IMG/VR virus record: IMGVR_UViG_3300028797_000007
Span: 47,500-111,499 of that record
Origin: a virus
Taxonomy: Duplodnaviria > Caudoviricetes
Strand: one strand, 5' to 3'
DNA: 64,000 bases
Below the pieces are notes generated by a model. The model saw nothing but the letters and a program-made list of their open reading frames with translations, did no database searches and was not told where the DNA came from. Below are positions 3,425 to 59,347 of the stretch, piece after piece. Positions within the stretch are counted from its first letter, which is position 1; every line of letters begins with the position of its first letter. The position numbers and the translations under genes are program-made.

Positions 3425-4447
3425 CTATTTCCCTCCTTTGGTTTTATTGCCATATCACAGGCTATATTTATTTTCCCATAATCCTTGTATCAAACTAATC
3501 TTTTTACGCTCCCAACCTTTAGAACTTACTTCTTGTAAAAAAGCTCCATAGTCTTCAACTCCAGTAGATTCTAATTTAGTTGGCGTTAATATAGGATTAC
3601 TATAATTACGTAATTGCAATCACTTTTCTAGTCCATTCGTATCAGTAGTCTTCTCAGTAGTTTTCCTAATAAAATCACTAAATAACAAAATTTTTTCTCC
3701 GTCTTCTATAAAAGGGAAGAACTCTTTGTATTTATTTAATAAAAAATCATTACACTGTTGTTCCACAACCTCCTCAACAATATGAAAAACTATCTCTTTT
3801 TTATTTTTATCAACGCTAAACCAAATTGAATCTAAAATTGGTTTTATATATTGACTTTCTAACGTTCCTATTTTAAAAATTTCGATATAGTTCTTAACTT
3901 CTGAACGTACTTGTCTTCTGTTATTAACAGAAGGTAACTTAATTGCTATATCTAATTTTCCTTCAGAATAAGCACCTCTGTTAAATTCATGTGTATTAAT
4001 TGTTACAGAATCTGGGTCCAATTTTTTAGCTCAAGCATGTCTTCTAATTGTTACTAATAGTTCTTTCTTTAAACCCTCAATCTGATTAGGAGAAAGTACT
4101 TTTTTATTATTAGAAAATTGCCCTGTGCTTAATGTTTCAATTAAGGATTGTATACCCAAATCCTCCATTATTTCTAAACCATATCCTTTTTTATAAATTA
4201 CATCTTTCAAAGAATTAGTTAAATCTTGCCAATCTATGTCATCAGGCTCCAATTGGTATCCTTGAAGCGAAAGCATTTGCCTTAACTCTTCCTTCCAATT
4301 TTCATTATTTTGAGTAATCTTAGTTTTAGGTAATTTATTTAACTCTCTTAATTCATGATATATATCTTTTTCATGTTGTTCTACTCTAGGCAAAATGGTA
4401 GTTAAAATATATGGTGCATATTCATGAACAATTTCATATCCATTCAT
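3425..4447 (-). CDS. Hypothetical tail-region protein (340 aa with TGA=Trp)
   Basis: ORFs 4031-4447 and 3620-4021 are in frame. TGAs at 4031, 3620 and 3455. TAG at 3425 abuts the next start. Confidence 0.75.
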
Positions 4448-4743
4448 TAATCAACCACCACCTTAATTACATAATCTTCTGGACGAATCTGCATTTTTTT
4501 TAATTGGTAATAATTAAAATATCTTTTATCTCCTACTGGTTGATATTGACCTGGTCGTTTACCATTCATATATTCTTCAGATTTTTTAACAGATTTAACG
4601 TTTATCGCCTCTTCATAATAATTCATTGGATTGGCTCCATACGGTAATTCATATTCATATAATATACCATTGGCCCCCAATCTTCTAACACTTAATGTTC
4701 TATCTATTTTAGCATTTCAATCATTTATAGTTCATTTACCCAT
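4447..4743 (-). CDS. Hypothetical protein (98 aa with TGA=Trp)
   Basis: ATG GGT AAA TGA ACT ATA AAT GAT TGA AAT... is in frame with the listed ORF 4447-4680. Confidence 0.7.
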
Positions 4744-4744
4744 A

Positions 4745-5578
4745 TTAAATCACCACTATGGTTGCTATATCTTTATTTAATTCTTCACCCGTAGCTATAG
4801 ATTTTACACGTATAGGTGTAAATGATGCTTTACTACTATCATTAATTGATAATACCATGTCAGTATCAATCTGAACTTTATCACAATGAATATAAACCGT
4901 ATGTTTATCATCATTTTTTAAATCTACAGCATCTATGTAAATATCCATAGCAGCAAATATATTATTATGAACTTGCTTTACTTTTGTAATAGAAGAAGCC
5001 TCTATTAAATAATTATAAGTAACAAAATATTTGTCACCTTCTTTAGCATTAAAAACATGTAAGAACCATTGTCTTGGTTCATTATCAGAAACACATAATT
5101 CATATTCATCTACATTTAATAAAGTGTTTTCATTATCCTCAACTTTATAAACATAAAACTTATCATTACCTGGAGATAATTCAGGTTTGGCTGTAAGTTT
5201 AGAATATCCTTGTTTATCAGTTTCTAAATACTCATTTCCTCTTATTTTAGTATTTCCTGGCTCCTCATCATTTAACCCGTATATATAACTTCATAAAGCA
5301 TATAATACAGAGCCTTCATTAATTATAAAATCTATATGATTTGTTATCCCAGCCGTGCCAATATGACCTTGAGCATCTTGTGCTGTTACAGGTTTAGAAA
5401 CAAATGATAAATTAGATAACGCTGGATTGTTTATAATCATTATAGGCTCTCCAACCTCAAAATCACCATACTCTATACCTTTTTCTTGAGGATTAACTCT
5501 ATTTTGTCTTATAACAGCCCCCTCAGGTTTACTTAAAATAATTTGAGAAACTTCTTGCATTCTTAATTGTTCTAACAT
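4745..5578 (-). CDS. Tail-tube-related structural protein (277 aa with TGA=Trp)
   Basis: A single TGA at 5291 joins 5291-5578 to an open frame ending at TAA 4745. Confidence 0.7.
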
Positions 5579-5731
5579 ATCATCGTCCCTCCTCTAAAAT
5601 TATAGTAGTAGAAAAGTTCCTTTTCTTCACTTTCCATTCTACTAACACTATATTATCATAAAATAGTACTTTTGTCAAGTAAAAATTGCAAAAAAAATAA
5701 GAGAGAAGATTTCTCTTCTCTCTAGTTATTA

Positions 5732-6706
5732 TTACATACTAGCTGGGTCAACTGGGTCGTAGTTTTCATCTAATGGATAAACTTTTCCAGTGTCAGTTAA
5801 ATGTCCATCAACAGAGTCAACTGTAACTTCTTTAGCTGGTACACGTTTAAATGAACCATCATATTGTCCGTAAGTTTCGTCTCCAGATTTTCCTTCTTGA
5901 CGTAATTGTCTGAATTTAATCATTTGTCCTTCGTCATCTCTTAAAGCTTTTCCTTTGAATGAGAATACTACAGCTTCTGTAGCAGCATTTAAGTTAAATG
6001 AGAATGAACTGTCAAGTTTTAATTTAGGAATTTCAATTTGGAAGATGTCATTTAATCCAGTATATTGGTTAAATAATAATGTATCACCAATAAATTTGTA
6101 TGTTCCAGCAAATTTATCAGCTAAAACTGTGATTTCAGTTAATTCTTCAGTTTTTGTTGGGAATCCCATTTCATATTCATAGAATACTCTGAAAGTAGCA
6201 TCTCCAACGATGCTGTCTTCTTTGTAGTTATGGAAATCACTAAATGAAATAGTATCAGTTTCTTCTTCTAGAGCATTTTCAGTTCTAGTAGCAGTTGATA
6301 AAATACCATTTATCATTTCAGCAATATAAACATAAGAACCTTTACGAGCTTTTCTACCTAATACGATAGTTTGTGCACCATCAGCTACGTGTACTAATTC
6401 ACTTTCCATCATAACGATTTTTTCTTCATTAGTACCTTCTCTTAATTCACCACCAGTTAATACTGCTAATGAACTCATAGTCATAATAGCGTCATCAAAT
6501 TGAACATTGATAGCTTTAGAGTGAGATACAGAAGCTAATGTTGGGTTACCTTTACCACCTTGGATATCAGTAACTTCAGCAGTACCTTCAAGAGTAGTAA
6601 CTTTTAATGTATCGAAATACATTACTGGATATTTAGTAACTAAATCGTATAATGTAACATCACAAACAGTAACTGAAGCATATTTTCTTCCTTGAATATC
6701 TAACAT
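5732..6706 (-). CDS. Major tail protein
   Basis: 324 aa, GGAGG RBS, high-expression codon bias, GGKGNPTL motif. Terminator hairpin at ~5700-5722. Confidence 0.7.
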   Translation of the reverse strand: MLDIQGRKYASVTVCDVTLYDLVTKYPVMYFDTLKVTTLEGTAEVTDIQGGKGNPTLASVSHSKAINVQFDDAIMTMSSLAVLTGGELREGTNEEKIVMMESELVHVADGAQTIVLGRKARKGSYVYIAEMINGILSTATRTENALEEETDTISFSDFHNYKEDSIVGDATFRVFYEYEMGFPTKTEELTEITVLADKFAGTYKFIGDTLLFNQYTGLNDIFQIEIPKLKLDSSFSFNLNAATEAVVFSFKGKALRDDEGQMIKFRQLRQEGKSGDETYGQYDGSFKRVPAKEVTVDSVDGHLTDTGKVYPLDENYDPVDPASM

Positions 6707-6729
6707 CTTATATACCTCCTAAGTTATTG

Positions 6730-7461
6730 TTAATCTAGCCAAAATTTATTAGTATCTTGGCCATCTTCAGAACTTATGTATGGACTTAATTGAGTCCTTA
6801 ATTCAAAAGATTGAATATCTACATATTTCTGTAGGAGCATATTAAATTGTAGCATGGTCATATTATACACTTGCTCAAATGTATAGCCTCCGACAGCAAC
6901 CAAGCCTAGAATCTTATTACCTAAATAATCTTCAGGTTTTTTATTAGGATTCTTTGTTTCTTCTATTTTCTGCTCGCTCATTTTCATCTTGCGAATCATT
7001 TCGCGCTCGCGCTCAGACATATGTTCATTTTCATGATATTGTCCGCCTTCTTCTGAAGCACTTGAATCAGGCAATGAACGTTCACATATCTCTTTCATAA
7101 GAAAATAGAAAGTATTGTCTAGAATTATTCCAGACTCCCTCTCCCCTATATATATAGTGCCACTAACATCAAAAAACTCTACTTTTGACTTTAAAAAAGT
7201 TTCACATGATAATTTTAATTGTTTTTTTAATATAGGACTTGACATAATATAAAGTTTTCATACTTCATAATCATCTAAGGTCTTACTCATATCTGTTTCT
7301 TGATTAATTATATCGCTTCTTTTTAGAAGTCATAAATTAATCAATGCCCAATATGTGTATTCCCCCATATCCACAATTTCTTGCAATGTGGGTTGATAAT
7401 AATATATATCTTGTGTAATTAGTATTGGTTTACCACTTAAAACTTTTGCTAAACTAATCAT
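6730..7461 (-). CDS. Hypothetical virion/tail protein (243 aa with TGA=Trp)
   Basis: ATG at 7461 overlaps the end of the previous gene. Two in-frame TGAs precede the listed ORF 6730-7245. Confidence 0.7.
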
Positions 7462-7951
7462 CTATTACAGCTTCATATATCATTCTATATCCTAGTAAAA
7501 TGTCTGATAATTGAGCATTTACTATACTAACACAACGATATTTTACTCCTCCAGTTTGAGTTAATTCATATTTCATTAAATTACTAATTACATGAGCTAT
7601 ATTTAAAGGTCTAATACCTTCATTTATAATCCATTGATTTCCTGGAGTAAAAATATCTATTGCTATACTTGGATGAAGGGTATCTGTTTTTGCAGATTCC
7701 TCAGCTGATATCAAAGATATAACAACTATACTTCCTTCATCTTCATCAAAAGGTAGAAGAGGCACTCTTGATATTTGAGTATCTCTTAAATCTTTTGTAA
7801 CGTCTTCTTTTCTTTCTAAAGGTTTTTTATCAGTATATACCAATAATTTCTTTAATTCTTGGCAATTATTAAATACTGTAATCATACGATAGATATCATT
7901 ATTGACATCTAAGAAGCTATCTGTTTCCATGACGTTCTTATTTAATATCAT
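7454..7951 (-). CDS. Putative tail completion/terminator protein
   Basis: 165 aa, located between head-tail genes and the major tail gene. Confidence 0.5.
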   Translation of the reverse strand: MILNKNVMETDSFLDVNNDIYRMITVFNNCQELKKLLVYTDKKPLERKEDVTKDLRDTQISRVPLLPFDEDEGSIVVISLISAEESAKTDTLHPSIAIDIFTPGNQWIINEGIRPLNIAHVISNLMKYELTQTGGVKYRCVSIVNAQLSDILLGYRMIYEAVIDD

Positions 7952-7960
7952 AAGTACCTC

Positions 7961-9166
7961 CTATACTGTTCTTATATAAACTGTCTTTTCAATTATTCCT
8001 TGAGGAGTTTCTGCCGTAATAACAAAAGTACCCGAATACTTATCTTTAATACTAATAGTAACATTAGTATCTGTAATATCGATAGTTTTTCTTATCTTAG
8101 AGAATGTCTCTACACCAAATACGGCTGCACTTCCATCTGATAATTGATAAGTTTGTGATGTATTCCATTCAATATAATCATCACCAGTTATATATAATTT
8201 AATTTCTTGTTGAGTATGTTCTCCTGATACTTCTATAGGAATATTTATAAAAATTGTTTCATTACGAGCTAGGGCAACTGTTATAATAGCAGTTCCTAAT
8301 CCTCTACCTATCAATCTTCCTCCATCTACTTGGATTATATTTTCATCAGAAGATGATAAAATTACGTCTTCTTCTACTTCTATTCCATCTTTTAATACTA
8401 ATACAGGTAATTCCATAACATCTCCTGCATATAGTTTTGTATCATCAGTTAATTTATTCTTAATTACATATTCATATACATCATCATATGCTATTCCATT
8501 TACTATATCATCAGTATCTAATAATTTATCATCAACAAATGATAAAATAGATACATTATCAATAGAAACATTATCCACATTTGTAACTCTATAAGCTTGT
8601 CCATTTATAATGAATCTCATTTCTGGATGTAACTCTAAATTTTGTTGAGTAGCAGCCATCATATTCCAATCAGTATCATGTAAAATAATGTTATCAAATT
8701 TTCTATTTACATCAGGAGTGACTCCTAAAGCATTTGTAATACGACCAGAACGGATATAAGCTGGTTGAATATGTAATTCTCTTGTATCTTTATCTATCCA
8801 TTTTAAATAACCTGTACAACGGTAAGCGATTCCATTGAAGCCAGGTTGGTCAGGACGAAACATCTTTTTAAGTAATATCCAATCGTTATCGTCCCATTTG
8901 AATAATACTCCTTTCTCTAAACCAACTTCTAACGGAGCAATAACATTTGCTGCTTCATATTCTTGAGTTGTTTTAGTAGAAAGAATTGCCACTTCGTGGT
9001 CTTTATAAGTTTTATCATTTTTATTATAAACAGAAATGGTAAAACCATATTGGCTATCTTCTATTAATGAACTAATACTTTCTTTTACTTTAGTTTTAAC
9101 GTATTCTCTCTTAGTGTTCCCTTTAAAATGAACTCTATCCTTGTATTCCTCGTAAAGAGTCAACAT
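7961..9166 (-). CDS. Head-tail joining/neck protein with C-terminal Ig-like domain
   Basis: 401 aa. SSSDENIIQVDG..GLGTAIITV resembles a Big_2 domain. Confidence 0.55.
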   Translation of the reverse strand: MLTLYEEYKDRVHFKGNTKREYVKTKVKESISSLIEDSQYGFTISVYNKNDKTYKDHEVAILSTKTTQEYEAANVIAPLEVGLEKGVLFKWDDNDWILLKKMFRPDQPGFNGIAYRCTGYLKWIDKDTRELHIQPAYIRSGRITNALGVTPDVNRKFDNIILHDTDWNMMAATQQNLELHPEMRFIINGQAYRVTNVDNVSIDNVSILSFVDDKLLDTDDIVNGIAYDDVYEYVIKNKLTDDTKLYAGDVMELPVLVLKDGIEVEEDVILSSSDENIIQVDGGRLIGRGLGTAIITVALARNETIFINIPIEVSGEHTQQEIKLYITGDDYIEWNTSQTYQLSDGSAAVFGVETFSKIRKTIDITDTNVTISIKDKYSGTFVITAETPQGIIEKTVYIRTV

Positions 9167-9395
9167 AATTAATTACCTCAAATATAGTTTGTCTAAAATT
9201 AGTGTAATCTATATATTTTAAAGTTATAATCTTTAAAACTATAGTTCCTTTTACGTCTTCAGGCATAAAAGTATTAAAAGTAATTTCGCTTAATAATTCA
9301 TCATATATAGTATGCCAATGTTTGCCTTCTTCTCTCCAACATAACATTTTATATAGGCTTGAAATGATATGTTTATAGATAACACTTGTATCCAT
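9135..9395 (-). CDS. Hypothetical protein
   Basis: 86 aa with RBS, inside the operon. Confidence 0.7.
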   Translation of the reverse strand: MDTSVIYKHIISSLYKMLCWREEGKHWHTIYDELLSEITFNTFMPEDVKGTIVLKIITLKYIDYTNFRQTIFEVINYVDSLRGIQG

Positions 9396-9413
9396 ATGCT
9401 TCCCTCCTAATTA

Positions 9414-9944
9414 TTAGTCTCTGTTATTTGGAATAGGGTCATTATCGTCCCCATTATGAATTGTTGGTCCTGGTTGATAATCCTGATTATTAGGATATTT
9501 TTCTAGACCACCAAAATTTCCAACAATACTTACTCTTTTATAAGTATATTCATGTAATGCTTTACGCATATCAGCTAAGTATTGTTGATATAAAACTGTT
9601 AAATTTCTCAAATTTTCATTTGGTGAATAAGTTTTAATACCCGCATCATAATATTGTTGTTCAATTTTTCTACTACTGTTTATATAACGTTCTAACCATA
9701 CAGGTTTCATACAAATGGCTAAAACCTCTATCTCATCATCAGTTAAAGTCTCGTAAAATACATGTGCTCTTTCATCTCTCTTTCTTAAATTATGTTCTGA
9801 AATACGAGCAAAAGAATTAATAGCACTTAATAAAACAGGATAAAGTGCTATGTGCAATTTATCCTCGTCTAATGATGCCAAATACTCGTCTTCTATTTTA
9901 GCTAGAAAACGCATATATACATCATAATATTCTGTTATTTTCAT
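9414..9944 (-). CDS. Putative head-tail adaptor
   Basis: 176 aa, downstream of the capsid gene. Confidence 0.5.
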   Translation of the reverse strand: MKITEYYDVYMRFLAKIEDEYLASLDEDKLHIALYPVLLSAINSFARISEHNLRKRDERAHVFYETLTDDEIEVLAICMKPVWLERYINSSRKIEQQYYDAGIKTYSPNENLRNLTVLYQQYLADMRKALHEYTYKRVSIVGNFGGLEKYPNNQDYQPGPTIHNGDDNDPIPNNRD

Positions 9945-10360
9945 TATTTTGTTTTCTTAGATGATGTTTTCTTTGTAGTAGTTGTTTTTTTAGTTGCAGT
10001 CTTTGCGGCAGGAGCTACAGCCTTAGGTTCTTCAATAGTGATAATTTCTTCTTCTTCAGGTTCTTCTTCAATTTCTTCTGTTATTACAACAGCTGAGTAA
10101 TCTTCTCCTAAAAATTTAGCGATTTCTTCTTCAGTTAAACCCATTTCATATAGTTTATTTGCATCTATATTACTAATTCTAATCATTCCTTCATTAAAAA
10201 TAATTTTGCTAGCAGGATAATCTAAAATATCTTGTAAACTTGTCTCACTAATTCTAATTCTTCCCCCAAGACCAAAACGATAAGTTCTGTTTTGTGTGTC
10301 TTTTAAACCTACAGGTTGTCCTGAAATGTTTTCTAAAACAACTGTTCTCTCATTATTCAT
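9944..10360 (-). CDS. Hypothetical protein, acidic then Lys/Thr-rich tail
   Basis: 138 aa with GGAGG RBS. Confidence 0.7.
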   Translation of the reverse strand: MNNERTVVLENISGQPVGLKDTQNRTYRFGLGGRIRISETSLQDILDYPASKIIFNEGMIRISNIDANKLYEMGLTEEEIAKFLGEDYSAVVITEEIEEEPEEEEIITIEEPKAVAPAAKTATKKTTTTKKTSSKKTK

Positions 10361-10445
10361 TTGTCATTCCTCCTAAAAAATTGTAAAAAAATTAAAGAGA
10401 AGGGACTTTCGGAAAAGTCCGTTCTCGTTTTATTACTAAGAAATA

Positions 10446-11471
10446 TTACATAGATGGATTGTCATCTAATTCAGTATTTCTGTAGATACCCCAGTAGTTA
10501 TTAGCTACTACTGCTACGTCAAACATATGTTGAGCAGATACTTCGATAGAACCATCTTGTAATCTTTGTTCATCGATTAAAGTTCCACCTTCAATACCAA
10601 TCTTAACTGGTTTTTCTTTACCAGCTGGCATAATATATGCATATTGGTCATCAATAGCTTTGATAGTATTACCTTCATCTTCAAAAGATTGAGTTAATAA
10701 TACTACGTTAGTTCCTTTATAACGTCCAACATATCCTTGTTCTCTAACATCATCATAATCTCTTAATGATGTAACAGGATTAGCATCTCCAACCCATCCT
10801 GGTTGATTGAATAAGTATGAAGCGAATGCTTTAGTACAATAAATTGTAACACTGTCTCCATAAGCTTCTACAGTAGTGATAATTTTGTCGAATTCTTTTG
10901 CGTCAAATCCAGCAACTACAGCTTTGTTAGCAGCAGGTCTGTCTTCAGCGTTGATAGCAGCTTTTAAAGCTCCTTGAACTGTTTTATAGATACTGTCTGA
11001 TAATCCTTCGATTATGATATCCATTAATTCAGCCATATCAACACGTCCAGCTAAGAAATCTCCTAATTCTAAGATAGCTGCACCAGCGTATACTCTAGGA
11101 CTCATAGTGATGTCTCTAGTATCTACGTTGAATGTACGGTAAGTTCCGTATTCTCCAGCAACAGTAACGAATCTTTTACCACGTGTAACACCTGTTCTTT
11201 GTTTGAAAACTATTTTTTCTCCAACATTTACATGTTGTACTTCAGCGAATGAACCAAATTGAGCGATTACTTTTTTAGGAACAACAACGTTAGCGATTTC
11301 TTCGATTAATTGGAATAAAATATTTTTGTTAGCTCTATAATAACTATAGTTATTGAAAGCTTTTAATTCTTCTCTTAAAGTTTCGTTAACGTCAGCTAGA
11401 CTGTATTCTGCTGGAATGTTTTCTTTAGTAGCAGCAGCTACACCTAATTCAACTAATTTTTCTAATTCCAT
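10446..11471 (-). CDS. Major capsid protein
   Basis: 341 aa, strongest codon bias, follows the protease/scaffold and decoration genes. Terminator at ~10395-10430. Confidence 0.85.
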   Translation of the reverse strand: MELEKLVELGVAAATKENIPAEYSLADVNETLREELKAFNNYSYYRANKNILFQLIEEIANVVVPKKVIAQFGSFAEVQHVNVGEKIVFKQRTGVTRGKRFVTVAGEYGTYRTFNVDTRDITMSPRVYAGAAILELGDFLAGRVDMAELMDIIIEGLSDSIYKTVQGALKAAINAEDRPAANKAVVAGFDAKEFDKIITTVEAYGDSVTIYCTKAFASYLFNQPGWVGDANPVTSLRDYDDVREQGYVGRYKGTNVVLLTQSFEDEGNTIKAIDDQYAYIMPAGKEKPVKIGIEGGTLIDEQRLQDGSIEVSAQHMFDVAVVANNYWGIYRNTELDDNPSM

Positions 11472-11489
11472 AGTCTTGTCCCTCCTTTA

Positions 11490-11993
11490 TTATGCGATAA
11501 CTCTATAAGTAGCACCGATTGTACCAGCTGGTACTGTTTCTAATGCACTACTTTCTATAACCATGATTTTATGAGAACCGAAAGTGAAAGTTGTTCCTTT
11601 AGCTAATTTGCTAGTGATAATTCCTTTTCCAGCGTTAAAATCAAAGTTAGTAGTAAAGATATCTCCTATTGTTAATTTGTATAATCTTGGTAAATAAGCT
11701 TCACCAAAAATTTCGTAATCGTCGTTTACTTGGTAAATAAAGTTTTCCATTCCACTTTTTCCATCTTCGTATCTACGAGGATTAGAGAAATGTAAGTACA
11801 TAGCGTCAACACATTTATTAGCTGTATATGATTTAACAATTGTATTGTCTTCAGCATTTATGAAAACGATTGCACCATTTTCTAATGAGTATCCGTCAGC
11901 AGCGAATGCTTCTCCTAATTTGCATTGAGCTTCGATTTCACCAGTTTTTCTACTAGCTACTTTGTTTAACTCAGCAACTGCGTATTTTGCCAT
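11490..11993 (-). CDS. Putative capsid decoration/minor head protein
   Basis: 167 aa between scaffold and major capsid gene, high-expression codons. Confidence 0.55.
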   Translation of the reverse strand: MAKYAVAELNKVASRKTGEIEAQCKLGEAFAADGYSLENGAIVFINAEDNTIVKSYTANKCVDAMYLHFSNPRRYEDGKSGMENFIYQVNDDYEIFGEAYLPRLYKLTIGDIFTTNFDFNAGKGIITSKLAKGTTFTFGSHKIMVIESSALETVPAGTIGATYRVIA

Positions 11994-12011
11994 ATAAATG
12001 TACCTCCTTAA

Positions 12012-13319
12012 TTATTTATTTGCCTTGTGGCGTTTTACTAAATCCCAAGCACCATTTCCTAAACTATTGTCTGCAATATTAATATTTAGACTAAAGTTAG
12101 CATCAGTATCTGTAGATTCAGTTTCTTCAGCAGATAATTGTTCAACTAAAGCTTGACCTAGTTCATTCTTAATTTCGTCAAGTGAACGTTCATCTACTTC
12201 GTTTGTTAATTTTTCAATTAACTCATCGTTCTCTAACTTAGTAGAGAATTTGTTTATAATTTCTAATTTTTCTTTTTTTGTGTATTTATTTAATGAACTT
12301 AAAGCGTCATTAAGCTTGTTTTCTAATGATTCGTATTTTGCTTTATAATCAGCTAATTCTGCTTCTAAAGCTGAATAATCTTTTTCCTTATTGCAAGCAT
12401 TTTCGCATACACAAGGATTTTTACCGCATTCTGGACATTCTTCTTCGTCTTCTTCTTCATCTTCGTCTTCCTTAGATGCAAATTCAGATTCTTCAGTAAC
12501 GTCCTCTACAGTCTCTACAACTTCAGTTTCTTCAGCAGATTCTTCTTCAGCTTCAACCTCAACTTCTTCAGTTGATTCAGTTTCAGTTTCAACTTCAGTT
12601 TCTACTGTTTCAGTAGCTTCTACTTCTGTTTCAACAACTTCAGTAGCTTCTTCTTCAACTGGATTAGTAGTAACTTCTGGTTCTACAATTTCAGTAATAT
12701 CTTCCATAATATTTTTACCTCCTTCATTATTTTTCTGTGTGTTCTCAACAAACATGGCGTAAGCACTTACCATGTTACTAAATGCTGTAATGAATTGAGC
12801 ATCTTCAAAGCAAGGTTCTACATCATCACCTAAAACTGTAATACCTGCAAATTCTGCATAAGTTACCCTGTAATAAGTAATAGAGCCTCTTCTTTCAAAT
12901 GTTCCTTTCATTGTATTAGGATTTAATTCCATAGATAAATGTTTTTCATTCTTAAGAATGTCTTGAGCTTCTTCAAAACGTCCATCCCAAATAACAACAT
13001 CTACTTCTAGATATTCTTTATCAGAACCGTCTTGTTTAACTCAAACCGCATGTGGTTCTAGTGGAATAAAACCAAAAGCACTTGGATTACTCTCATGCCC
13101 TTCGAAATCGTTAGTCTCATAATTGAATGTTCCAATTACTGGAGTACCAGGAATTGTAGATGCTAATTGCTCAGCAACTTCACCTTCAATGATAGAACGG
13201 TTTCTATTTATTCCTTTGTAAAAAATACGAGCTCTTCCCATTGAGAATACACTATTGATTTTGTTAGGAGTACCTAATAAATCAACTGAAAAGGTTGCAT
13301 ACTTATGTAATTCATTCAT
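12012..13319 (-). CDS. Prohead protease/scaffold (435 aa with TGA=Trp)
   Basis: TGA at 13041 joins the two ORFs (HAV-W-VKQDG...VVIWDGRF...HLSMEL). Acidic coiled-coil C-terminus. Confidence 0.8.
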
Positions 13320-13331
13320 TGTAGCTCCCTC

Positions 13332-14921
13332 CTATAAACTCGCTTCCTTCGTTATAGTTGAATCTTTCTTCTCATTATCGTCCAATTCTGGGCGTCCATT
13401 CTTCTTGTCACTGGCTTCTTGTGCTTCAATGTTACCAGTTTTAGTTTGACCATTTGCTTTAATGTCGGATTTATTGCTCATGGTATGTGAACTTTGTAGG
13501 GGAACAAGTTTACTATCCAAGTCAAGAATGTCGTTCTCAAAAGCAGTAAGTGATTCTATATAACGTTGTTTAACTCCCAAAGCTACTTGAGGTACAATTT
13601 TGGAGAATCCATATTGAGCTCCTTCAAGATAACTTTTCATCATTTCCTCTCTATCCTTATAGGAAGTATCTAAAAATGAAAATACAAATTTGCTATTTTT
13701 TATGATTTTCTTTTGGCAAACTGCGCCTAAATAGAAATTAAACCAAATAGCAATTTGTTCACGAAGTTTCCACATGAATATAGCATCTCTACGTTGAGAC
13801 TCTTTCAATGTACCTGCTGATGTAGAATTAAATAATTCAGCAGATACCCCAGCATCATCGTAAAATTGGTCGTAATAAGTTTCCAAGAATTCATAATTTT
13901 TTGTAGCATCTCCTGTTTCACCTAACGATAAAACATCAATTTCTTTAGCCAATGTAGTAATAGCGTCAACATTATTCTTTTTAGCAGCAACGGCTTTTAA
14001 ATTCTTATGGAATTCAGCAGCTAACTCTAAATCTATTTCTGGGTTTCCTTCTTTGTCTATATCAATTAATTGAACTAATAATTTAGTTAAATTGGTAGAA
14101 ATATAATCATCTTTTAATGGTTCTAACATTTGTATACGAGCTATTTCTTTAATTAGAAAAGCAAAAGGTGGACGTCCATCTGATGTCGTAAATGCTATAC
14201 CATTTTCTACCGGTACAATAAACCATTGATTTATTGATTTACCATTTTTATATTCTTTATAAGCTGAACGAATTGCTTTAGGATATTGCTTTAATACTTC
14301 GTCCATTGTTAATAAATTATCTTTAGTCATTTCAGCCATAGCTACATCAATGAAAGTTAGGTCTACTGCAAATATATTAATTGATGGAGTTCCTGCAGTA
14401 CCAATTATTTTACAATAATCTGTAGGTAATTTTATCGTTTTAAAATACGAATTGGCCCCTTTTTTATATTCTTCATTATAATAATAAGTCTCACCTTCAA
14501 TTAACATATCTAATAAAGCATGACTAGTAAAGTTTTCTACTTCAATATCCTCATCTAATGTTCTTAAGGCTGCATTATAATCTTTCATTAACTTTTTCTT
14601 GTTTACTTTTTTATCGTCTAATATCGGAGATATAATATATGAATTATAATATATATAAGCAAAATATTCTAATAGTCTACGATATAATGGATGAGCAAAG
14701 TAAACTCTAGAAAATTTTCTTCAAGCTTTTACATCACTATAAGGTGTTTTTAAAACATCTTCTGGTTTAATAGGAATTTCCACTCTACGACCTTTAGTTA
14801 AAGCAGAGCCTTGAGGAATTTCTATAGTACCATTTTTAACAGCTGTACCCATTGCTTGAATAGATTTTCTAAATTCGGTTAAATATTCTTTTGTATAACT
14901 AGTAAATTTTTCTTTATCCAT
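13332..14921 (-). CDS. Portal protein (529 aa with TGA=Trp)
   Basis: TGA at 14721 is in frame with 13332-14588. Lies between terminase and protease. Confidence 0.8.
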
Positions 14922-14938
14922 TTGCTACTTTTCACCTC

Positions 14939-16696
14939 CTAATTTAAAAAACTATATTGACCTTTACTCCAATCTCGATTTTTCTTTTCTCTTTCTGTTT
15001 CTTCTACTTGATTTATATAATATAAACCATATACAAAAGCAGAAACCAAGTCTTTTCGAGTATGGCTATTGATACGAGTTAGCACTATAGTACTATTTGT
15101 ATCTAAATTGGCTTTTAAATTAGATAACTGGTCTTGTAACTTAGTCGTTTGAGCATATGGAATAAGTTTATTTGCTTGTTGAACTGGGTTCATCTTATTC
15201 CAAGTTTTATATTGACTGAAATATCTACGTGCTTGTCGTTCATTTAATAGTAGAGAAACACGTTTTAGACTCAAAATAATGTGAGCATTTGTATAAATTT
15301 CACTATTTAAGCCTCGATTTGCTTCAATTCCGAACAATTTTCGCACATTTTCACGTTTTTCTGTACTAGAATACTTAGTTTTATTTAAAAAACCATAAGG
15401 ACTATAATAAATACCGTTTAATTCTTGTTCATCAATCATATAATCGGCAAGTCCAGCACCATTACCATTAATATCCATTACGATTGCTTTAAAGTCAAAC
15501 TCTAAATCTAATTGTTTAAGCATTGCAGCCTGGTCTCTGAAGTGAGTCCCATTTAAAATCTTGATATTTACTAGGTGAATCTTATAACGTTCACCATCAG
15601 TATAAACCTTAAATACCATCGCAACAGTTTGGTCGCCTTCAAATCTTGCAACGTCGACAGCACATACATAAAAACCTTTAAAGTCTTTTTCTCTTTTAAA
15701 CTCAGGTCTTACAAGATTACGACATTTACTAATTTGAGTATAGGAATAATAACTATCTTCGCTACCGCCAGTCCATACAGACATATATTCACGTAAAAAT
15801 GATTCAAGCTTATATGAAGATGCCTGTAATTTATCTTTTACTTTATCTACAGATAATAATCCGTGCATTACAGGTATTCTATAATCTCCACCAAAACAAA
15901 ATGCTTTGTCTGGTTCTAATGCCATATCAACTAATGTCTCTAATGTTCTATCATGAGCATAGGTTCCTTTATACCCCGCTGTAGTAATCATAGTTTGTGC
16001 AGCATGTGGTTCTGTCGGATTTAATAATCCAGCAACAGTTCTACGGTCAACATTCATCAATGGAATGATTACTTCGTTAACTGCATCACCATCCATCATG
16101 GCAAACTCTTCAAGTGTACCCCAATGTCTACGACCACCACGTCCAGCGTTACCAGTATTAACGATATCTATTTGACTATCATTACGGAATTTAAGTTCAG
16201 CATAATCTGAACCCATATTACCATATTTCTTTTTCATCTTATCAATATCACTTATATTAAGTTCATTAACTAAAAAAGGAAATAAACGATAAATTTCATT
16301 AGTCTTTTCTTCTACGATTTGTGCCGCTTGCTTTTTTGTATCAGCACAAGTGAATCCTTTACTTCGCGGTTGCATAATTCCACGAATATTCATATCCAAG
16401 AAATCTAGAAATGACTTTGAATACGCACGAGGAAATGTTCCAGAAACCTCTCTAAAACGCATACATACTCTTAAAAATATTCTTTGATAAAAATATAATT
16501 TAAAGAATGAGTCAGCTGGAGTAATAACATCAATTAAATAATCAGGATATAAAGTAAATAATGTTACCATATCCTCGAATCATTCTCTATTATCTTCAAC
16601 ATACTGAGGTGTTATAACTATTTGCGCCATATCATTTCTTTCTTGGAAAGTATTATAATACTTGTCTAATATTTCGTCAATACTATTTGAATTCAT
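14939..16696 (-). CDS. terL: Terminase large subunit (585 aa with TGA=Trp)
   Basis: FPRAYSKS Walker A, TLEEFA Walker B, VDVAR nuclease motif. N-terminal extension through TGA at ~16580 to ATG 16696. Confidence 0.9.
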
Positions 16697-17678
16697 TTTC
16701 TACTTGTTGGAACATATTTTCTAATTCTAATTCATTCATAGGGTCTTCTAATTCCATACCTTCTTCTTCGGATTCTGAGTATAATTGTTCTATATCTTCA
16801 TCAGTTATATCTGTACCCGCCTCTGAATTTAGTGCTTTAGCATTATACATCTCATTAACAGTCTCGCTAGAGTCCGTAAATAATCTACGAACATATTGTT
16901 GCATATTTTCTATTGTTTTATCAACTATATCTCTATTTTCAGATATTTTGTAATTTAATAAAAAGCCTGTTTTTTCTAAATATGCGACTAATTCACTTAA
17001 ACTTTCTATTGTATTTTCATTAGAAGATGTTTGAGTACTTATACCCAACTCTTTCATAAGTGCATTATAACTTTGAAGAACTGTAGTAGCTTCTTTGTTA
17101 TCTCCATTTGCAATACAATGGTCTGATATAGCAGAGAGCTTAGCTAGTTTTCTTACCATATCTCTTCTAGCTTCATCTTTAAATGGATAATGACTTAATG
17201 TATGTCTTTCATATTCTTCCATTCTCATGTATTCTTCAAGAGTAAAACCATCTATGTGTCCTCATTTTTTTCTTAAGTACATAAGTAAATCTGAATGAAT
17301 AGCAGTTAATTCATCTAATACACTATTGTACTCTCTACATTTTTCCCACATCTTATTGTATTGAAACCAATTATTATCAGCATATTTACCATTAGTCATT
17401 TCCTGACAATAATCTATAAGTAATGGGCCTAACTTCTCATACTTCTTTTCCATTTCTATTCATTTATTAGCATCATATGGTAAATCTAGGAATTGACATA
17501 ACTTATCAATTGAAGCTAAATCTTTTCTATCTATTTTTTGAGCTATGCATTCAATACAAGTATAACTTATTCCTTTTATTCCATAAAGAGATGAATTAGA
17601 AGTTGGAAGATACATGTCCAGTTTCTGTTTTTTACCACATTCTGGACAAATTCTATATTGTTCATTCATAAAATCCAT
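16683..17678 (-). CDS. Zn-finger protein, terminase small subunit candidate (331 aa with TGA=Trp)
   Basis: Three listed ORFs joined by TGAs at 17460 and 17262. Two CxxC pairs. Directly upstream of terL. Confidence 0.65.
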
Positions 17679-17683
17679 TCCTC

Positions 17684-18847
17684 CTATAGTTTAGTTGCTT
17701 TCTTAGATGCTTTTCTCAATTCTCTCTCTTTTCTTCTCTCCTCTTTAGCCATTTTATTTTCATAAACGCAATCTTTACAAATTTCCTTAAATGTCCCATC
17801 TTGATATTTGCCAAAATTTAATTCATGTGCGTATAGTTGTCTTCCACATTGTGGACATATTTTCCATTTAGTCATGTTTTCTAATGTACCATTAGGTCTA
17901 TGTGTTCTTTCTTCCCATCATAAATATGCTTGCTTAGCAATTTGTTTTGTAATATGTTGTTTCCATATTGTGCTGATATAATTAACACTATATGTTTTAC
18001 CACCCATTTTTTCTAAATCACTAACAATTTGTTCATTTGGTACATGATTAATTTTTTCTTCTAAAATTAATTTATGTTCAGGTGAAAATCTAGTTCTTTC
18101 AATTAATTCATCTAAGAAATTATACATTTCTCACCATGGATGGAATGGATTATCTGTAGTCTTAGCTTTCATTCCTGAATAATATTTCAACATGGCATGT
18201 ATATGTTTCCAATTACCATAATCTACTTGCATCTCATAATCACATAAAACATGTGGTCCTATACACATTCCTATATAGTCTGGTTTTTCTGTATGAGAAG
18301 GAAGAACTCCAGTATTTCCTACTGGTGGTCTATAACTATCTTTAAGTAAGAATTGTTCTCTTCTTAAATCTATCATTCATTCTCTTAAAAAATATTTAGT
18401 TTGATATGTTGGAACTAATTTTCTATTAGGGTCCATATCTCTTTTACCTTCTAATACTTCACGACAATATTGATATTGCTCAGATATTAAATCTATAGCT
18501 TCCCATAAATCTTTCATAAAAGGTATATCTGCATCTTTTTCTCTATCTATTGTTGGTCTAGGAACTCTATATATTGATACTTCTTGACTTTTTTGTACAG
18601 TAGCTTCTCCTAATGCAGTTTCTATTAATGTCTCATAACTTACTTTCTTTTTACTCCCTTCTTTCAATTCTACTTCTGCATCTACATCTTCTGCATATAA
18701 AAGATAATTTGCTACTTTGTCTAATTCAGAAGGAGGACATAAAGATAATAATCCTTGCTCATCTAAAAAATTAACTAATCCTAATCTTTCTTGATAAGCT
18801 TGTAAGTTAAAGTCTAAATAACTTGCAATCTTCATTTTTACCTCCAT
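17684..18847 (-). CDS. Hypothetical protein with C-terminal Zn finger (387 aa with TGA=Trp)
   Basis: Four listed ORFs are in one frame, joined by TGAs at 18377, 18131 and 17918. Confidence 0.8.
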
Positions 18848-19934: not shown

Positions 19935-20264
19935 ATGATAGAGATATTGGCTTTTTTAGAGAATAATCCACAATACACAAACATTGATATATTATATTCA
20001 TATAAATTACCTGAAAATACAAAAGAAATTTCGCACATCTATTTTAATCGCGGTAACTGGTCATTATGTGTCACTGCACCACATAGCGGCAACGGCGGAA
20101 GGTTTCTCCTTCGCGCCAATCCCACTGCTACGCTAGATAGATGGTCCACTGCTGTCTATGAGATACTGCTAGATAGCTGGGAAGATGTGTGCAGGGACTT
20201 AGATTATGAAAATTATCAATATGATGTGGCCGGAATGGAAGTAGAAGAAGATTTTTGAAATTAA
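19935..20264 (+). CDS. Hypothetical protein
   Basis: 107-aa ORF. The TGA at 20256 is followed by AAT TAA. Confidence 0.65.
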
Positions 20265-27646: not shown

Positions 27647-27865
27647 TTATTCAAAATTGCTTAAAATTTTGAACTTAGGATTTGGGTCGCCATCTTTGCA
27701 AGTGCAGTTATATAAGTAGATTTCGTGGTTTACAATATTAGCTACGCTATGTAAACTATCATAACTGCCGATTGAATACCAAGTAAACGCAGGATAAATG
27801 ATGTGTCCCTCTTCATCTACTATATCTTTTTCAGCATATCTAAATACTTCCCACATAACTATCAC
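27647..27865 (-). CDS. Hypothetical protein
   Basis: Own promoter and GAAAGGA RBS. Confidence 0.6.
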   Translation of the reverse strand: MIVMWEVFRYAEKDIVDEEGHIIYPAFTWYSIGSYDSLHSVANIVNHEIYLYNCTCKDGDPNPKFKILSNFE

Positions 27866-28369
27866 TTTCCTTTCTTTATTACAATTATATTATATCATTT
27901 TTAGGTGGCTCTGTTCAAGTTTTTTAAAAACTTTTTTGTTAAGCCTCCTCGCCAAATATTGACCTCTTTTGTGCACGCGACCTCTCGACAGTGACCATAC
28001 TCACCTACCCGACTTACATAGCGAACTGCGTTGGACTCTTGTATGGTATATAGGAGCAGGTCAATCAGTTCCACCACAGCCATTTATCTTTTTCGCCCAT
28101 AATCATTGGACTGACGATAGTTAGGCTTCACTCCCTTTTCCCGAGTATAAAAATCAATATCTGGCGGCGAGGTTTAACTCTCACCTTTTAAGGAATAAAT
28201 ACCTCAATGACAGAAACTATTAGTAGTATTACGGCAATCAATAAGCAAACTCCCATCATTTTAATATAATGTAATTTATTGCTATTCATAATACCACCTC
28301 TTTCCTTTTTTTCTTTTTCTTTTTACAATTTAATTATACAATAAAAAGGTAGTTCTGTTCAAGTATTTT

Positions 28370-29204: not shown

Positions 29205-30810
29205 TGTTTTCACCCTTAACAATTAACTTGTCCCTTTCTTTTAATTTTTACATATATATTATAACACTTTTTTAACCGACTTTCAAGTGTTTTAATCATT
29301 TTTTTTAAGGTCAACTTTCGTTAGTTTCATCTCGCAACATCAGGTAGGGAATCACTCCATGCCCTTAGCTAAAAGAGCCGCCCACAGGTAAACCTTAATG
29401 GGGGGTCGCTATATCCCCAATGAAGACCTCGTAAATTAAGCAATATATACTTGCTTATTACGAGATTTTAAGTAAAAAACCTAAAACCCCCTAATAAATA
29501 AGTATATAAACGCCTAGTTGAGTGACTTGGTTGCCCGTCTGCTCAACTAGACGGAGGGAAGTATTAAGACTATTCCTAATCAGTGAGTAGCTTAAGTATC
29601 TGCACCTTTCGCCGTAGTCAACGGATACTCACACTTTCGCTAGCAGTGAGCTGCGTTGGTATGAAAGATTTAGATTTATAACACTGGTGCTCTTCATACA
29701 AGGTTCGCTACAGTCGTAACTCGGACACCTCCTTATGTGAAATTTACTAGGTAAAGTACACATCTGCCCTTTGTTTTGTATTTCGCACTCTGGTTCACTT
29801 TTCTCTTTCATTTTCTATATATATTATAACATTGTTTAATAGCATTCGTCAACTATTTTTTTAATGTTATTTCCAAAAAATAGATGTCCGCCCAAGGACT
29901 TTCACCAAGGGACGCCAACTCGAGGTTCAAAACAAATTACTGCTAGATGACCTGTTCGATTACCCTCTATATGAGCTGACCTTTATTTTCTTTCGTGTGT
30001 CTATATTCCACCACGGACAATAATTATGAAAGGTTGTGATGCCACCCCAATTTTAACCACAGTCTCTGGCACTAGGTGAACTTAATCTCCTAGGAGGGTT
30101 CGGGCCCCCGTGCGTCTTCCTTATTTCAAAGCTACGCGGTGGCATGTATAAACTAATTAAATGAGAACCTTTCGCATTTACCTTAAACCGATTAAATCGG
30201 GTGTAGAAATGGTAGCCTCGTCACTATACTTGGTATAGTAATTCTCACAAACTATTTTTCTTTCTTTCTAAAATAATTATATCATTTAACACTGCCTCAA
30301 ATCAAGTTTAAAACTTAAATTTGACTACTTAAATTTCGTTCGGTGTGTTAGAGAGGTTTTTGTTAACCATATTTATCAAACATCTCATAAAACTATGGTG
30401 TATTCTTTTAAGTAAGGATTTTTCTCTTATGGTTATGACTCAAGGTCTACCAGCCTTACTATGGCTCACTTTCCAAATATTTCTTTTTCATTTGATATAT
30501 ATATTATATCAAATATTTAAGATAATTTCAAGTTTTTTATAACCCATTTTTATCAAAACTTTTAAAATCTATGGGGCATTCTTTTTGATACTTTATTTCA
30601 CCGAAGTTACTGCATATCGGGCTCGCTTTCCAATTTCCTTTTTTTCTTTTTCTATATATATTATATAATATTTTGAATGCTTTTTTCAAGTCTTTTTTTC
30701 AAAATATTTTTCACAAAACGGTTACCCCGTTTTATTTTTTTCTTTTTCTTTTTTATTACAATTTAATTATATTATATTTCGCTACCTTTTGACAAGTATA
30801 TTTTTTAATT

Positions 30811-31415
30811 TTATGCTCTTTGAAAAATAAAAGTATATGGTAGTCTTCCTACTAAGGTATTACATAAGATGAACTTCAGTCACCAGAGAGTTAAATGCCT
30901 CATAAAGGAGCTACCTTTATTTCTACTTAACCCACACAAATGTGCCGGAGCTGGATGGGATTGGTACCCATTACTTTCACTTGTAATTTAGGCAATTTTG
31001 ATACCGCAATCAACGCCCTTGTCGCAGTCTTAAGCTACTCGCACTATCTTCCGTGTCTTATACCCATATTACTATGGTTCAGCTGCGACACTCGCTTATT
31101 GGTAATTCAGCTTCCCCTCTTGCCCACCACAGGCAGTGGTTCCACAGTCTCTCTCTTAAATATGGGGCTACCCATACCTAAGCCGTCAAGATGACGAGCG
31201 ACTGGAAGATATACTTTATCCACAATATATAATCCCCACAATCTACTTTCTTTTCAACCTATTAAAGTCGTCTTGTTATTTAGTTGCCTAAATAACCGTC
31301 TCCATCCATTGCTAAGTCTCCCAAGCAACTAAGAAGGGGCTGTAGATTTCCACCCCCTGACTACAATCAGGGTTTTTCAAGTGGTTCATACAATTTTATT
31401 TTTCAAAGAGCATAA
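30811..31415 (-). ncRNA. Large structured RNA ~600 nt (ROOL-like candidate)
   Basis: 22-bp terminal inverted repeat TTATGCTCTTTGAAAAATAAAA, GC-enriched, no credible ORF, next to the tRNA cluster. Family call is from size and context only. Confidence 0.55.
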
Positions 31416-35265: not shown

Positions 35266-35573
35266 ATAATGTTGAGAAATTCACCATCTCTGTTTTGTTT
35301 CCTCACAGCCACATCCAAGCTACGACTTTCACGTAGCACTTCATCCCCTAACATACCCGTCCTCATAATAATCAATTATAGGCAATTATAGGAGCTAACT
35401 CCCTTAGGCGTCTTTTTACACCGGCATTATCCTCGTGGATAGGGTCTAGAATTTCTCTATATAATAAGTGCGAACTGTGGCTTCTTGTCCTTTAGGTCAG
35501 TCTTTATCCTAGTCCTCACACTCCCCAAGGTCGACTGGGCTGACTTGGATGCTAGGTTACACTTATAAACTAA

Positions 35574-35649
35574 TGGTGGCTTCAGGTGGAATCGAACCAC
35601 CGACACAAGGATTTTCAGTCCTTTGCTCTACCAACTGAGCTATAAAGCC
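35574..35649 (-). tRNA. tRNA-Phe(GAA)
   Basis: Cloverleaf. Confidence 0.95.
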
Positions 35650-35893
35650 ATATATAAAAACGGCATTTTGAATAGTAATATTGTATCTTAGGTCAAGTAG
35701 ATTTTCTCCGTGAATTACAGTCCGTTACCAGAGCTGCGCTTTCGCTTCAAAATTACGACATGGGGTCACCCCTCATATAACTTGATTACCACTTAGTATA
35801 CACTTTAATCTATCAAAATTAACGCTCCGGACTGTTTCAGTAGTTAGCTAAACCGAGTTTCCTCACCGGAATGACGCGCCGTTACTATCAAAA

Positions 35894-39918: not shown

Positions 39919-40014
39919 TGGCAGGGGCTATAGGATTCGAACCCATACCCCGGGCTTTGGAGACCCGTCTTTACGGTTTTGAAGACCGCTGTGCTACCAT
40001 TACACTAAGCCCCT
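39919..40014 (-). tRNA. tRNA-Trp/opal suppressor (TCA) with a second CCA anticodon arm
   Basis: AGGGGCT TA GTGT AATGGTA GCAC A GCGGT CTTCAAA ACCGT AAAGA CGGGT CTCCAAA GCCCG GGGT ATGGG TTCGAAT CCTAT AGCCCCT G CCA. Confidence 0.9.
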
Positions 40015-40980: not shown

Positions 40981-41071
40981 TGGCGCCTGCTATAGGACTC
41001 GAACCTATGCGTCGATTACTCGACCTAGCTGTTTAGTAGACAGCCCCCTTAACCAACTTGGGTAAACAGGC
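40981..41071 (-). tRNA. tRNA-Ser(ACT)
   Basis: Long variable arm, loop CTACTAA. Confidence 0.85.
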
Positions 41072-41387
41072 AAAAATTAAACAACGGGGGTTACGGCCCC
41101 CCGTTGGGGATTTCATGTATCTCCTACAGAGAGTTTCTGGGGTTATATATATAGTAATATTATAACATTACTATTAAAATTATATAATATATATATCCTT
41201 ACTCACAACCTCGGTTATGTCCACCGTGGACAAAGACTGTCCTAACCCAACAATCTTTATAATGGGGTGGAATTACGATTGCCACGCATGCTTACGATGA
41301 GTATTTTTATCTTGGCCCAAGAACTCATACTAAACTTGCTTATAAAGGCCCTGGACTTATATAGCTTGTAATACTAATGCCATTAAA

Positions 41388-41609
41388 TTATTCAGTTACT
41401 ATTGCAGTAAACTTAGTTTTCATCTTGCCATCAAATTCAGCTTTTTCTTTAGATGCTAAACCTTTAGTTGCTAAAGAACTTAAAGTTGCTCTAACTGATT
41501 GAATAGTTAAACCTTCAACTTCATTGATAACTTCTTCGGCAAAAGCACCATCAGCGAATTTTTCTTTTAAGATGTTTAAAATGTTTTCTTGTTTTTCAGT
41601 TAATTTCAT
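41388..41609 (-). CDS. Winged-helix protein (paralogue family)
   Basis: KLTEKQENIL...AFAEEV...SVRATLSSLATKG...KMKTKF. Confidence 0.7.
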   Translation of the reverse strand: MKLTEKQENILNILKEKFADGAFAEEVINEVEGLTIQSVRATLSSLATKGLASKEKAEFDGKMKTKFTAIVTE

Positions 41610-41825
41610 TTTTTTCACCCTTAAAAACTATTTGTTTTTCCTTTCTTTAATTTTTACAATTTAATTATATCAAATATCAGAGCTAATTTCAAGTATTTTT
41701 TGAAAATTTCTGCTCTTCTATAAGAACATATCGTCTGAAACCAACATAGCCATCATTGGTCCGCACGATGCTCTGGCCTCCGGATGTTGAAGATATATCC
41801 TTATAGAAAAGCAGAATTCTTCTTT

Positions 41826-48404: not shown

Positions 48405-48469
48405 GCGACGGTTGCCGACGAGTCTCCAAAACTTGTGTCGAGTGGGTTCAACTCCTACATCCCCTGCCA
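48396..48469 (+). tRNA. tRNA-Trp(CCA), atypical D arm
   Basis: AGGGGGT/ATCCCCT acceptor, loop CTCCAAA, G73. Confidence 0.8.
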
Positions 48470-48752: not shown

Positions 48753-48778
48753 TGAAAAAAATAAGGAGATATGATATT

Positions 48779-59346: not shown

Positions 59347-59347
59347 A

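Follow-up and report, generated by a model that had tools for sequence, protein, structure and literature searches.

A cattle-gut phage with TGA predicted to encode tryptophan and a candidate decoder tRNA(UCA) bearing an extra anticodon-like hairpin

We have analyzed a window of 64,000 nucleotides, bases 47500-111499 of the IMG/VR record IMGVR_UViG_3300028797_000007 and 57% of that genome, in which many genes are interrupted by the codon TGA. The record is complete, at 111,499 bp with 127-bp direct terminal repeats and 32% GC. The public runs that hold the phage are bovine gut metagenomes from several studies, and the virion module is SPbeta-like; this is a complete tailed phage of the cattle gut. 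We consider it very probable that TGA has been reassigned from stop to tryptophan in this phage, with its own tRNA(UCA) as the decoder. Coordinates are in window numbering unless marked as genome.

Read in genetic code 11, the gene train on the minus strand at 3425-18847 breaks into 20 pieces, and when TGA is read through these become nine abutting genes. By codon count they hold 16 in-frame TGA codons, and 9/9 of them stop at TAA or TAG. An earlier examination of the letters alone (the sequence-only reading) had given the same numbers of codons and genes and the same termini, and its counts and coordinates are exact. The TGA codons are not assembly errors, because contigs from other metagenomes have TGA or TGG at the same sites; TGA/TGG polymorphism is seen across independent bovine-gut runs, this comparison of public runs being made on contigs. 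PHROG profiles align across the TGA codons of the portal, the large terminase, and phrog_3313, 3314, 4051 and 5767.

The meaning of the codon was examined by alignment. A terminase scan of IMG/VR yielded 24 close relatives, with terminases 73-96% identical, and four complete sister genomes (G001-G004, terminase 80-91% identical to that of the phage) were assembled for comparison. At the TGA sites of the window the codon in the relatives is TGG in 124 cases and TGA in 31, and almost all of the rest fall at one variable column of the terminase. In the reverse direction, the TGAs of the relatives correspond to TGG (31), TAT (2) or TTT (1) in the window. Over the whole genome, at the TGA sites of the phage, TGG is counted 127 times in the four sisters and Tyr/Phe codons 27 times, and the spectrum of substitution in the sisters is alike for the TGA codons of the phage and for its own TGG codons. 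Serine codons are rare at these sites, with one TCT in the relatives within the window, and one TCT and one AGT in the sisters genome-wide. Since TGG occupies the aligned sites, serine codons are rare and features of the selenocysteine type are absent, these alignments indicate that TGA is tryptophan in this phage. The sequence-only reading had taken Trp as the most likely meaning, and had suggested alignment of the TGA positions to homologues; the columns prove to be mostly Trp, the aligned codons of the relatives being overwhelmingly TGG with Tyr/Phe next. Two contexts that it had thought Trp-like are sustained. KK-W-G in the gene at 16683-17678 has TGG in 4/4 sisters and W in Geobacillus virus E3, while RS-W-G in the gene at 48752-49081 has W in two sisters. 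The distant phages Geobacillus E3, Enterococcus VRE9_4 and Lactococcus 949 are informative at only two TGA columns, the others being variable.

The genes concerned are listed here, all on the minus strand, with the first base of each TGA codon in brackets.

3425-4447 (genome 50924-51946), minus: gene of 340 amino acids (aa) in the virion module, family unknown; three TGA (4033, 3622, 3457); ends in TAG
4447-4743, minus: 98-aa gene; two TGA (4734, 4719) and zero TGG; sisters have TGG 2/2, and TGG 2 plus TAT 1
4745-5578, minus: 277-aa gene; one TGA (5293); TGG in 9 relatives and in 4/4 sisters
5732-6706, minus: virion structural protein (phrog_2729), likely tail tube; contains neither TGA nor TGG
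6730-7461, minus: 243-aa gene of the tail module (phrog_4051); two TGA (7332, 7260); ends in TAA
10446-11471, minus: major capsid protein candidate (YonB family by ESM Atlas, phrog_4088); no TGA, two TGG
12012-13319, minus: 435-aa gene of the head module (phrog_3313, function unknown); one TGA (13043); TGG in 19 relatives
13332-14921, minus: portal protein (phrog_2739); one TGA (14723); relatives have TGG 20, TGA 1
14939-16696, minus: large terminase subunit; one TGA (16582) in a variable column; relatives have TGA 5, TGG 1, other 18
16683-17678, minus: 331-aa gene (phrog_3314); two TGA (17462, 17264); W at both columns in Geobacillus virus E3
17684-18847, minus: 387-aa gene (phrog_5767) that heads the late block; three TGA (18379, 18133, 17920)

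For the gene at 3425-4447 there is no alignment of a sister or relative over its three TGAs, so that the reading of Trp there rests on the rest of the genome. The orthologue of 6730-7461 stops at TGA in sisters G001 and G004, and at TAA in the phage. The TGA site in 12012-13319 is TGG in an independent bovine-gut DNA contig and in a contig from an RNA library, both from other studies (13041 T>C). This gene had been called a protease, a label without support given that there is no Pfam match and its PHROG is of unknown function. An annotation of 17684-18847 (phrog_5767) as a sigma factor is likewise unconfirmed, with no match in Pfam or to PDB sequences. An AlphaFold model of the capsid candidate has a predicted local distance difference test score (pLDDT) of 55, too poor to use, and a profile search of the PDB found nothing. 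That the major capsid gene is free of TGA, as had been stated earlier, is correct (0 TGA and 2 TGG in 10446-11471). The same was said of the major tail gene, and it is true of 5732-6706, but this gene has no Trp codon of either kind and the absence of TGA there therefore carries no information. Avoidance of TGA by the eight-gene head/tail block as a whole (0/11) is not significant when compared with the other virion genes (p = 0.07).

Coding density increases from 0.81 to 0.88 on passing from code 11 to code 4, but this is a poor discriminator, as reading through TAA gave 0.905. The gain is small because fragments of open reading frames (ORFs) still cover the DNA, and the test is a poor one in an AT-rich genome. 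There is no clear TGA stop in this genome. The clearest candidate for a TGA still acting as a stop is in 19935-20264 (plus strand), where TGA is codon 108/109 and is followed by AAT TAA. Some small TGA-containing ORFs in the tRNA region (e.g. 27798-28124, 29491-29811, 35549-35851 and 41377-41664) were rejected as genes because the same frame in the sisters has stops or TGA.

We then have the question of where in the genome the TGA codons lie. The sequence-only reading had them concentrated in genes of packaging and morphogenesis. This holds inside the window only, and genome-wide the replication genes are equally recoded. Block-wise shares were calculated for genes of at least 100 aa over the whole 111,499-bp genome, for the blocks and genes below.

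genome 2151-21848, plus: replication block; TGA at 17/65 Trp codons
genome 21865-66346, minus: virion block; TGA at 45/187 Trp codons
46534-63936 plus genome 65-2149, plus: block of ~19.6 kb over the genome ends; TGA at 2/44 Trp codons
48752-49081, plus: 109-aa gene; two TGA, both W in sisters; the sole TGA-bearing gene of the genome-end block
49153-63936, plus: long TGA-free genes (ThiF-like, weak JAB-like, Sak4-like annealing protein, unknowns); all Trp codons TGG

The replication block encodes a primase, a RecJ-like nuclease, DNA polymerase III alpha, NrdD and glycosyltransferases. The polymerase, of 1280 aa, has three TGAs, two of which are inside Pfam domain matches. The share of TGA is 26% in the replication block vs 24% in the virion block (p = 0.74), and together these two blocks have 62 in-frame TGAs in 26/45 genes, i.e. 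62/252 Trp codons (~24%). Because the replication genes carry TGA at the rate of the virion genes, replication would depend on UGA read-through and not just virion assembly. The earlier suggestion had virion assembly depend on the phage UCA tRNA; the dependence would extend to replication as well. The richest gene in TGA is outside the window, encoding a tail-fibre-like protein with FN3 domains (9 TGA vs 8 TGG). A candidate lysin with a CHAP domain has one TGA, and in the adjoining 149-aa gene TGA makes up 2/3 Trp codons.

The block over the genome ends, encoding a phosphatase, ThiF-like, Sak4-like and DnaB-like proteins and unknowns, is depleted of TGA relative to the other two (p = 0.0014). 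The long genes at 51-64 kb use TGG only, as had been noticed, and the run of genes at 49153-63936 (plus strand) continues across the genome end into the DnaB-like helicase. A few small genes elsewhere had also been credited with TGA. The gene at 48752-49081 is real; the TGA near 19545 is ambiguous, falling at codon 3, and the gene at about 21403 is without a homologue. Mean identity to the sisters is 65% in the depleted block, and 71% and 67% in the others. As the sisters are not more similar to the depleted block than to the others, its lack of TGA is not explained by a recent import from standard-code phages, and constraint is the better reading of the depletion. Within this TGA-free region, adjoining genes at 59348-60906 (plus strand) give a JAB-like match that is weak and falls under the Pfam cutoff, and a ThiF-like E1 domain; they may be a ubiquitin-like conjugation or counter-defence pair.

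The existence of a phage tRNA(UCA), which the sequence-only reading had reported, is confirmed. That reading had passed over an additional arm of the molecule that resembles an anticodon arm.

39919-40014, minus: tRNA(UCA) of 96 nt with an encoded CCA end; the sole decoder of UGA found

Its acceptor stem has A1-U72, G2-C71, G3-C70, G4-C69 and G5-C68, with G73. These pairs and G73 are the identity set of Bacillus subtilis tRNA-Trp (PMC9976931). That set includes the anticodon C34 C35 A36, whereas the anticodon here is UCA, with CCA confined to the loop of the extra hairpin. In the anticodon arm, GCGGU-CUUCAAA-ACCGU, the loop is CUUCAAA. This arm is followed by a 5-nt linker and then by the extra hairpin, CGGGU-CUCCAAA-GCCCG, with a 5-bp stem and the loop CUCCAAA, the same as the anticodon loop of tRNA-Trp. 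The molecule continues with a variable loop of normal type (4 nt) and the T arm, so that the fold has five arms.

The same design is present in 21 further IMG/VR contigs found by a pattern scan. Pairing in the extra helix is 95.5% over 22 distinct sequences, with changes on both sides at 3/5 of the pairs. The scan fixed the CUCCAAA loop, so the conservation of the loop in that set proves nothing. Further scans were therefore made in which only the loop of the decoding anticodon and the T loop were fixed. The extra loop contains UCCAA in 10/18 distinct long tRNA(UCA) sequences, whose backbones are of several unrelated kinds; the remaining 8/18 are selenocysteine-like or doubtful calls on manual reading of sequences and folds. 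Long amber tRNA(CUA) species have an extra loop U-YUG-A, i.e. an anticodon of glutamine, in 18/25 distinct cases, and on manual reading of the sequences the remaining 7/25 also hold YUGA. A twin-arm tRNA combining a CUA anticodon with a CCA loop was sought; the one match arose by chance and is not a tRNA. In these sequences the extra loop appears to track the amino acid known from recoded phages, Trp at TGA and Gln at TAG. We found no description in the literature of a suppressor tRNA with such an extra anticodon-like hairpin, and the five-arm suppressor tRNA is apparently undescribed.

The tRNA(UCA) was most likely acquired horizontally. The sisters have no match to it, though the flanking genes and a tRNA-His do match, and ARAGORN finds no tRNA(UCA) in any of G001-G004. 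Its best matches are in L066 (97%) and L061 (95%). The terminase of phage L066 is only 35% identical, and its tRNA-His is 80% identical to the tRNA-His that neighbors the tRNA(UCA) of the phage. It is the lack of a match in the sisters, and the 97% identity of the tRNA in a phage with a terminase so distant, that argue for transfer.

The sisters are also informative on the code of the host. In ORFs of at least 200 aa they have 0-5 in-frame TGAs compared with 67 in the phage, and TGA is the stop in 0-7 of their ~90 ORFs of at least 100 aa. Neither a release-factor domain nor a tryptophanyl-tRNA synthetase (TrpRS) was found in the phage genome. The host probably reads the standard code and terminates at UGA, as had been surmised; the sister genomes, with few in-frame TGAs, some genes that stop at TGA and no tRNA(UCA), make this likely. 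Their data also fit a lineage that had few TGA stops beforehand.

Recoded and standard-code phages are intermixed among the 24 relatives. L004, an IMG/VR contig of 5.7 kb with a 95% identical terminase, has 0 TGA and 16 TGG over 1890 aligned residues, and is nested on the terminase tree among recoded relatives; L005-L008 and L016 have 6-9 TGAs each. On a tree of terminase DNA from which the Trp codons were masked out, four changes of code state are needed and the well-supported branches force at least three; the mosaic nature of the genomes and the shortness of the contigs qualify this count.

We propose the following mechanism. The host would terminate at UGA. The TGA-poor block would be translated first, and the tRNA arrays would be transcribed early. 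Host TrpRS, on which the phage must rely as it has none of its own, would charge the tRNA(UCA), which would then outcompete RF2 at UGA, and full-length translation of the replication and virion genes would follow. The extra hairpin could supply the C34-C35-A36 signal that is lost from the decoding anticodon, uncoupling charging from decoding, a step to which we give about an even chance. The tRNA gene probably arrived horizontally in a lineage already using few TGA stops, and TGG-to-TGA changes would then have accumulated where translation follows expression of the tRNA.

Other explanations of the in-frame TGA codons have to be weighed. ARAGORN labels the tRNA as tRNA-SeC, and a length of 96 nt, the long variable region and G73 might suggest that it is charged by seryl-tRNA synthetase (SerRS) or is a selenocysteine tRNA, so that TGA would be Ser or Sec. 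The label arises because of the anticodon only, and we regard this interpretation as extremely improbable. The aligned codons are TGG and then those of Tyr/Phe, with serine rare, and ~64 TGAs are spread over many genes. Rfam scores the RNA as an ordinary tRNA (61 bits) and not as tRNA-Sec. Bacterial tRNA-Sec has an 8/5 arrangement of acceptor and T stem and a 6-bp D stem; in the tRNA(UCA) the acceptor is of 7 bp, the D stem of 4 bp and the T stem of 5 bp, and the first pair is A1-U72, not G1-C72. Alternatively, the host might itself use genetic code 4 of the Mycoplasma type, in which case the phage would simply follow its host and the recoding would have no role in timing or dependency. The genome is AT-rich at 32% GC, and some relatives of its NrdD are in assemblies labeled Mollicutes, Mycoplasmatota or Tenericutes (~61-68% identity). 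We nevertheless think this very unlikely. The sisters lack the in-frame TGAs and have some genes that end in TGA; TGA is a minority Trp codon (24-26% in two blocks and 4.5% in the third); and a phage tRNA(UCA) with Bacillus-type Trp identity and a CCA extra loop would be needless in a host that supplied a UGA decoder and had a TrpRS accepting the UCA anticodon. The cultured phages with the most similar terminases infect Geobacillus, Bacillus, Enterococcus, Lactococcus and Clostridium. Assignment of the host from the similarity of NrdD was rejected, as the best matches (79-89%) are on mixed or doubtfully binned contigs, some of ~129 kb and possibly phage.

The function of the extra hairpin is more evenly balanced. 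The most economical reading of the sequences, at roughly even probability, is that its loop is an anticodon identity signal for the host synthetase. The hairpin would be a surrogate anticodon (CCA for Trp, CUG/UUG for Gln), and the gene of ~96 nt a portable code-switch module; we put this at one chance in two. Horizontal transfer of such a module would repeatedly flip the code of lineages poor in TGA stops, with at least three changes among 22 close relatives. A different possibility, which we take seriously but hold to be rather unlikely, is that the recoding is real and the hairpin is not an identity element, being a relic of duplication, a place where a modification enzyme or a factor of the phage binds, a signal for processing, or a further decoding head that reads UGG. 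On manual reading the two hairpins do look like a tandem duplication, with 11/17 positions identical, and each is canonical on one side, the first following the D arm and A26 and the second preceding the variable loop and T arm. Moreover, work on opal suppressors derived from tRNA-Trp in E. coli suggests that TrpRS tolerates U34 at least in part. Yet in a neutral relic the 7-nt loop would not stay invariant amid compensating changes in the stem, in phages with only ~35% terminase identity to this one, and the same UCCAA loop is found on unrelated tRNA backbones. Amber suppressors carry the glutamine anticodon at the same place; the extra loop therefore goes with the amino acid inserted, which is what an identity element would do. 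The combination of CUA with CCA was not found.

A number of points weigh against the account of reassignment and surrogate charging favored here. The base at position +4 after the in-frame TGAs is not biased to weak contexts of termination (p = 0.14), and three TGAs lie 1-2 codons from TAA or TAG in small ORFs, so that residual termination at TGA is possible. The nearest cellular relatives of NrdD (67-71%) are in mixed ruminant-gut Bacillota assemblies. The covariation was measured on sequences that are related to one another, some of them retrieved with the pattern that fixed the loop. A hairpin in the variable arm is not where TrpRS normally meets the anticodon, and hence to act as a decoy it must be flexible, or the two hairpins must stack in another way. 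Finally, the order of expression in the proposed mechanism, with the TGA-poor block first, is assumed.

The window contains other RNA species.

48396-48469, plus: ordinary tRNA-Trp(CCA); its D arm (GGCGACGGUUGCC) is atypical and sets it apart from the sisters' tRNA-Trp

A full-length ROOL RNA is found at 30820-31408 on the minus strand (Rfam RF03087, 186.8 bits), with no blastn match in the four sisters. At 35665-35819 (minus), between tRNA-Phe and tRNA-Glu, there is a match to the 3' part only of the OLE RNA model (RF01071, positions 437-594 of 616, 102.5 bits), which is 76-88% conserved in three sisters. A phage tmRNA at 45248-45643 (plus) scores 47.6 bits against an Rfam threshold of 47, and in 3/4 sisters ARAGORN finds tmRNAs with tag peptides such as GNIFSKIANRVKSLFTANAVALA. 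A tRNA-Ser at 40981-41071 (minus) has the unusual anticodon ACU (loop CUACUAA) and no blastn match in the sisters; the tRNA arrays of two sisters have a tRNA-Ser(GCU). Segment identity is highest (89%) for the NrdD homologues in L253 and L254, where ~3 kb is occupied for 700 residues; this suggests an insertion, either an intein or an intron. These contigs are binned as Clostridia or Bacilli, and one, of 129 kb, may be phage.

It remains to compare this phage with known systems. Genetic code 4 of the Mycoplasmatales is similar in that a tRNA-Trp(UCA) reads UGA as Trp. There the code belongs to the cell itself, which has no RF2 and encodes Trp mainly by TGA, and the tRNA folds as a normal 75-nt cloverleaf.

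The recoding itself is already known in kind, and that of this phage is a repeat of the pattern published for the 'Agate' phages, the likeness to that clade being by published description. The Agate phages are TGA-recoded, ~127 kb in length and in some cases from cattle (Borges et al., bioRxiv 10.1101/2021.08.26.457843). They have standard-code relatives with >90% nucleotide identity, of which one ends 2.7% of its genes in TGA, and the path proposed was loss of TGA stops, acquisition of the tRNA, and then recoding (10.1101/2021.08.26.457843). In both cases TGA is Trp in low-GC phages of the cattle gut of >100 kb, with standard-code relatives at >80-90% nucleotide identity, an acquired suppressor tRNA and recoded structural genes. 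TGA stops are few in the standard-code relatives of both, at 2.7% there vs 0-8% here. They differ in that the replication machinery of Agate, in the published comparison, had not accumulated TGA, whereas the primase, RecJ-like nuclease and polymerase III alpha are recoded here; recoding of replication genes was described as 'variable' among clades (10.1101/2021.08.26.457843). A recoding biased to late genes that avoids replication genes is not what is seen in this phage (17/65 vs 45/187), and only the genome-end block is depleted. The replicative polymerase and primase can therefore depend on a suppressor tRNA as much as virion genes, which makes it less likely that in this lineage the recoding is purely a 'late-gene or lysis timer'. 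With a complete genome and four complete standard-code sisters, the phage adds a well-resolved case to the published phenomenon. The Jade phages similarly read TGA as Trp and infect Firmicutes (10.1101/2021.08.26.457843), but have their own TrpRS and RF1 in a code-change operon, and neither is present here. The phAss-1 group of the human gut are also large gut phages with stop-codon recoding and a related terminase (35% identity), but phAss-1 recodes TAG and not TGA (PMC10607447).

The tRNA is the more important part of the finding. Borges et al. did not describe the structure of the tRNAs, and noted that suppressor tRNAs may be non-canonical (10.1101/2021.08.26.457843). If the role suggested for the spare arm is true, it would answer their question of how host TrpRS and the system that charges Gln accept phage suppressors, and would explain why only reassignments to Trp and Gln have been seen. 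It would also be a natural design uncoupling tRNA identity from decoding, of direct interest for expansion of the genetic code. The closest parallels are the mimics of the anticodon arm in the E. coli thrS operator and in viral tRNA-like structures, where a synthetase likewise reads a hairpin with the cognate anticodon loop (PMC9976931). Those mimics are located in mRNAs or at the ends of viral genomes, whereas here the hairpin lies inside a predicted working tRNA, beside a different, decoding anticodon.

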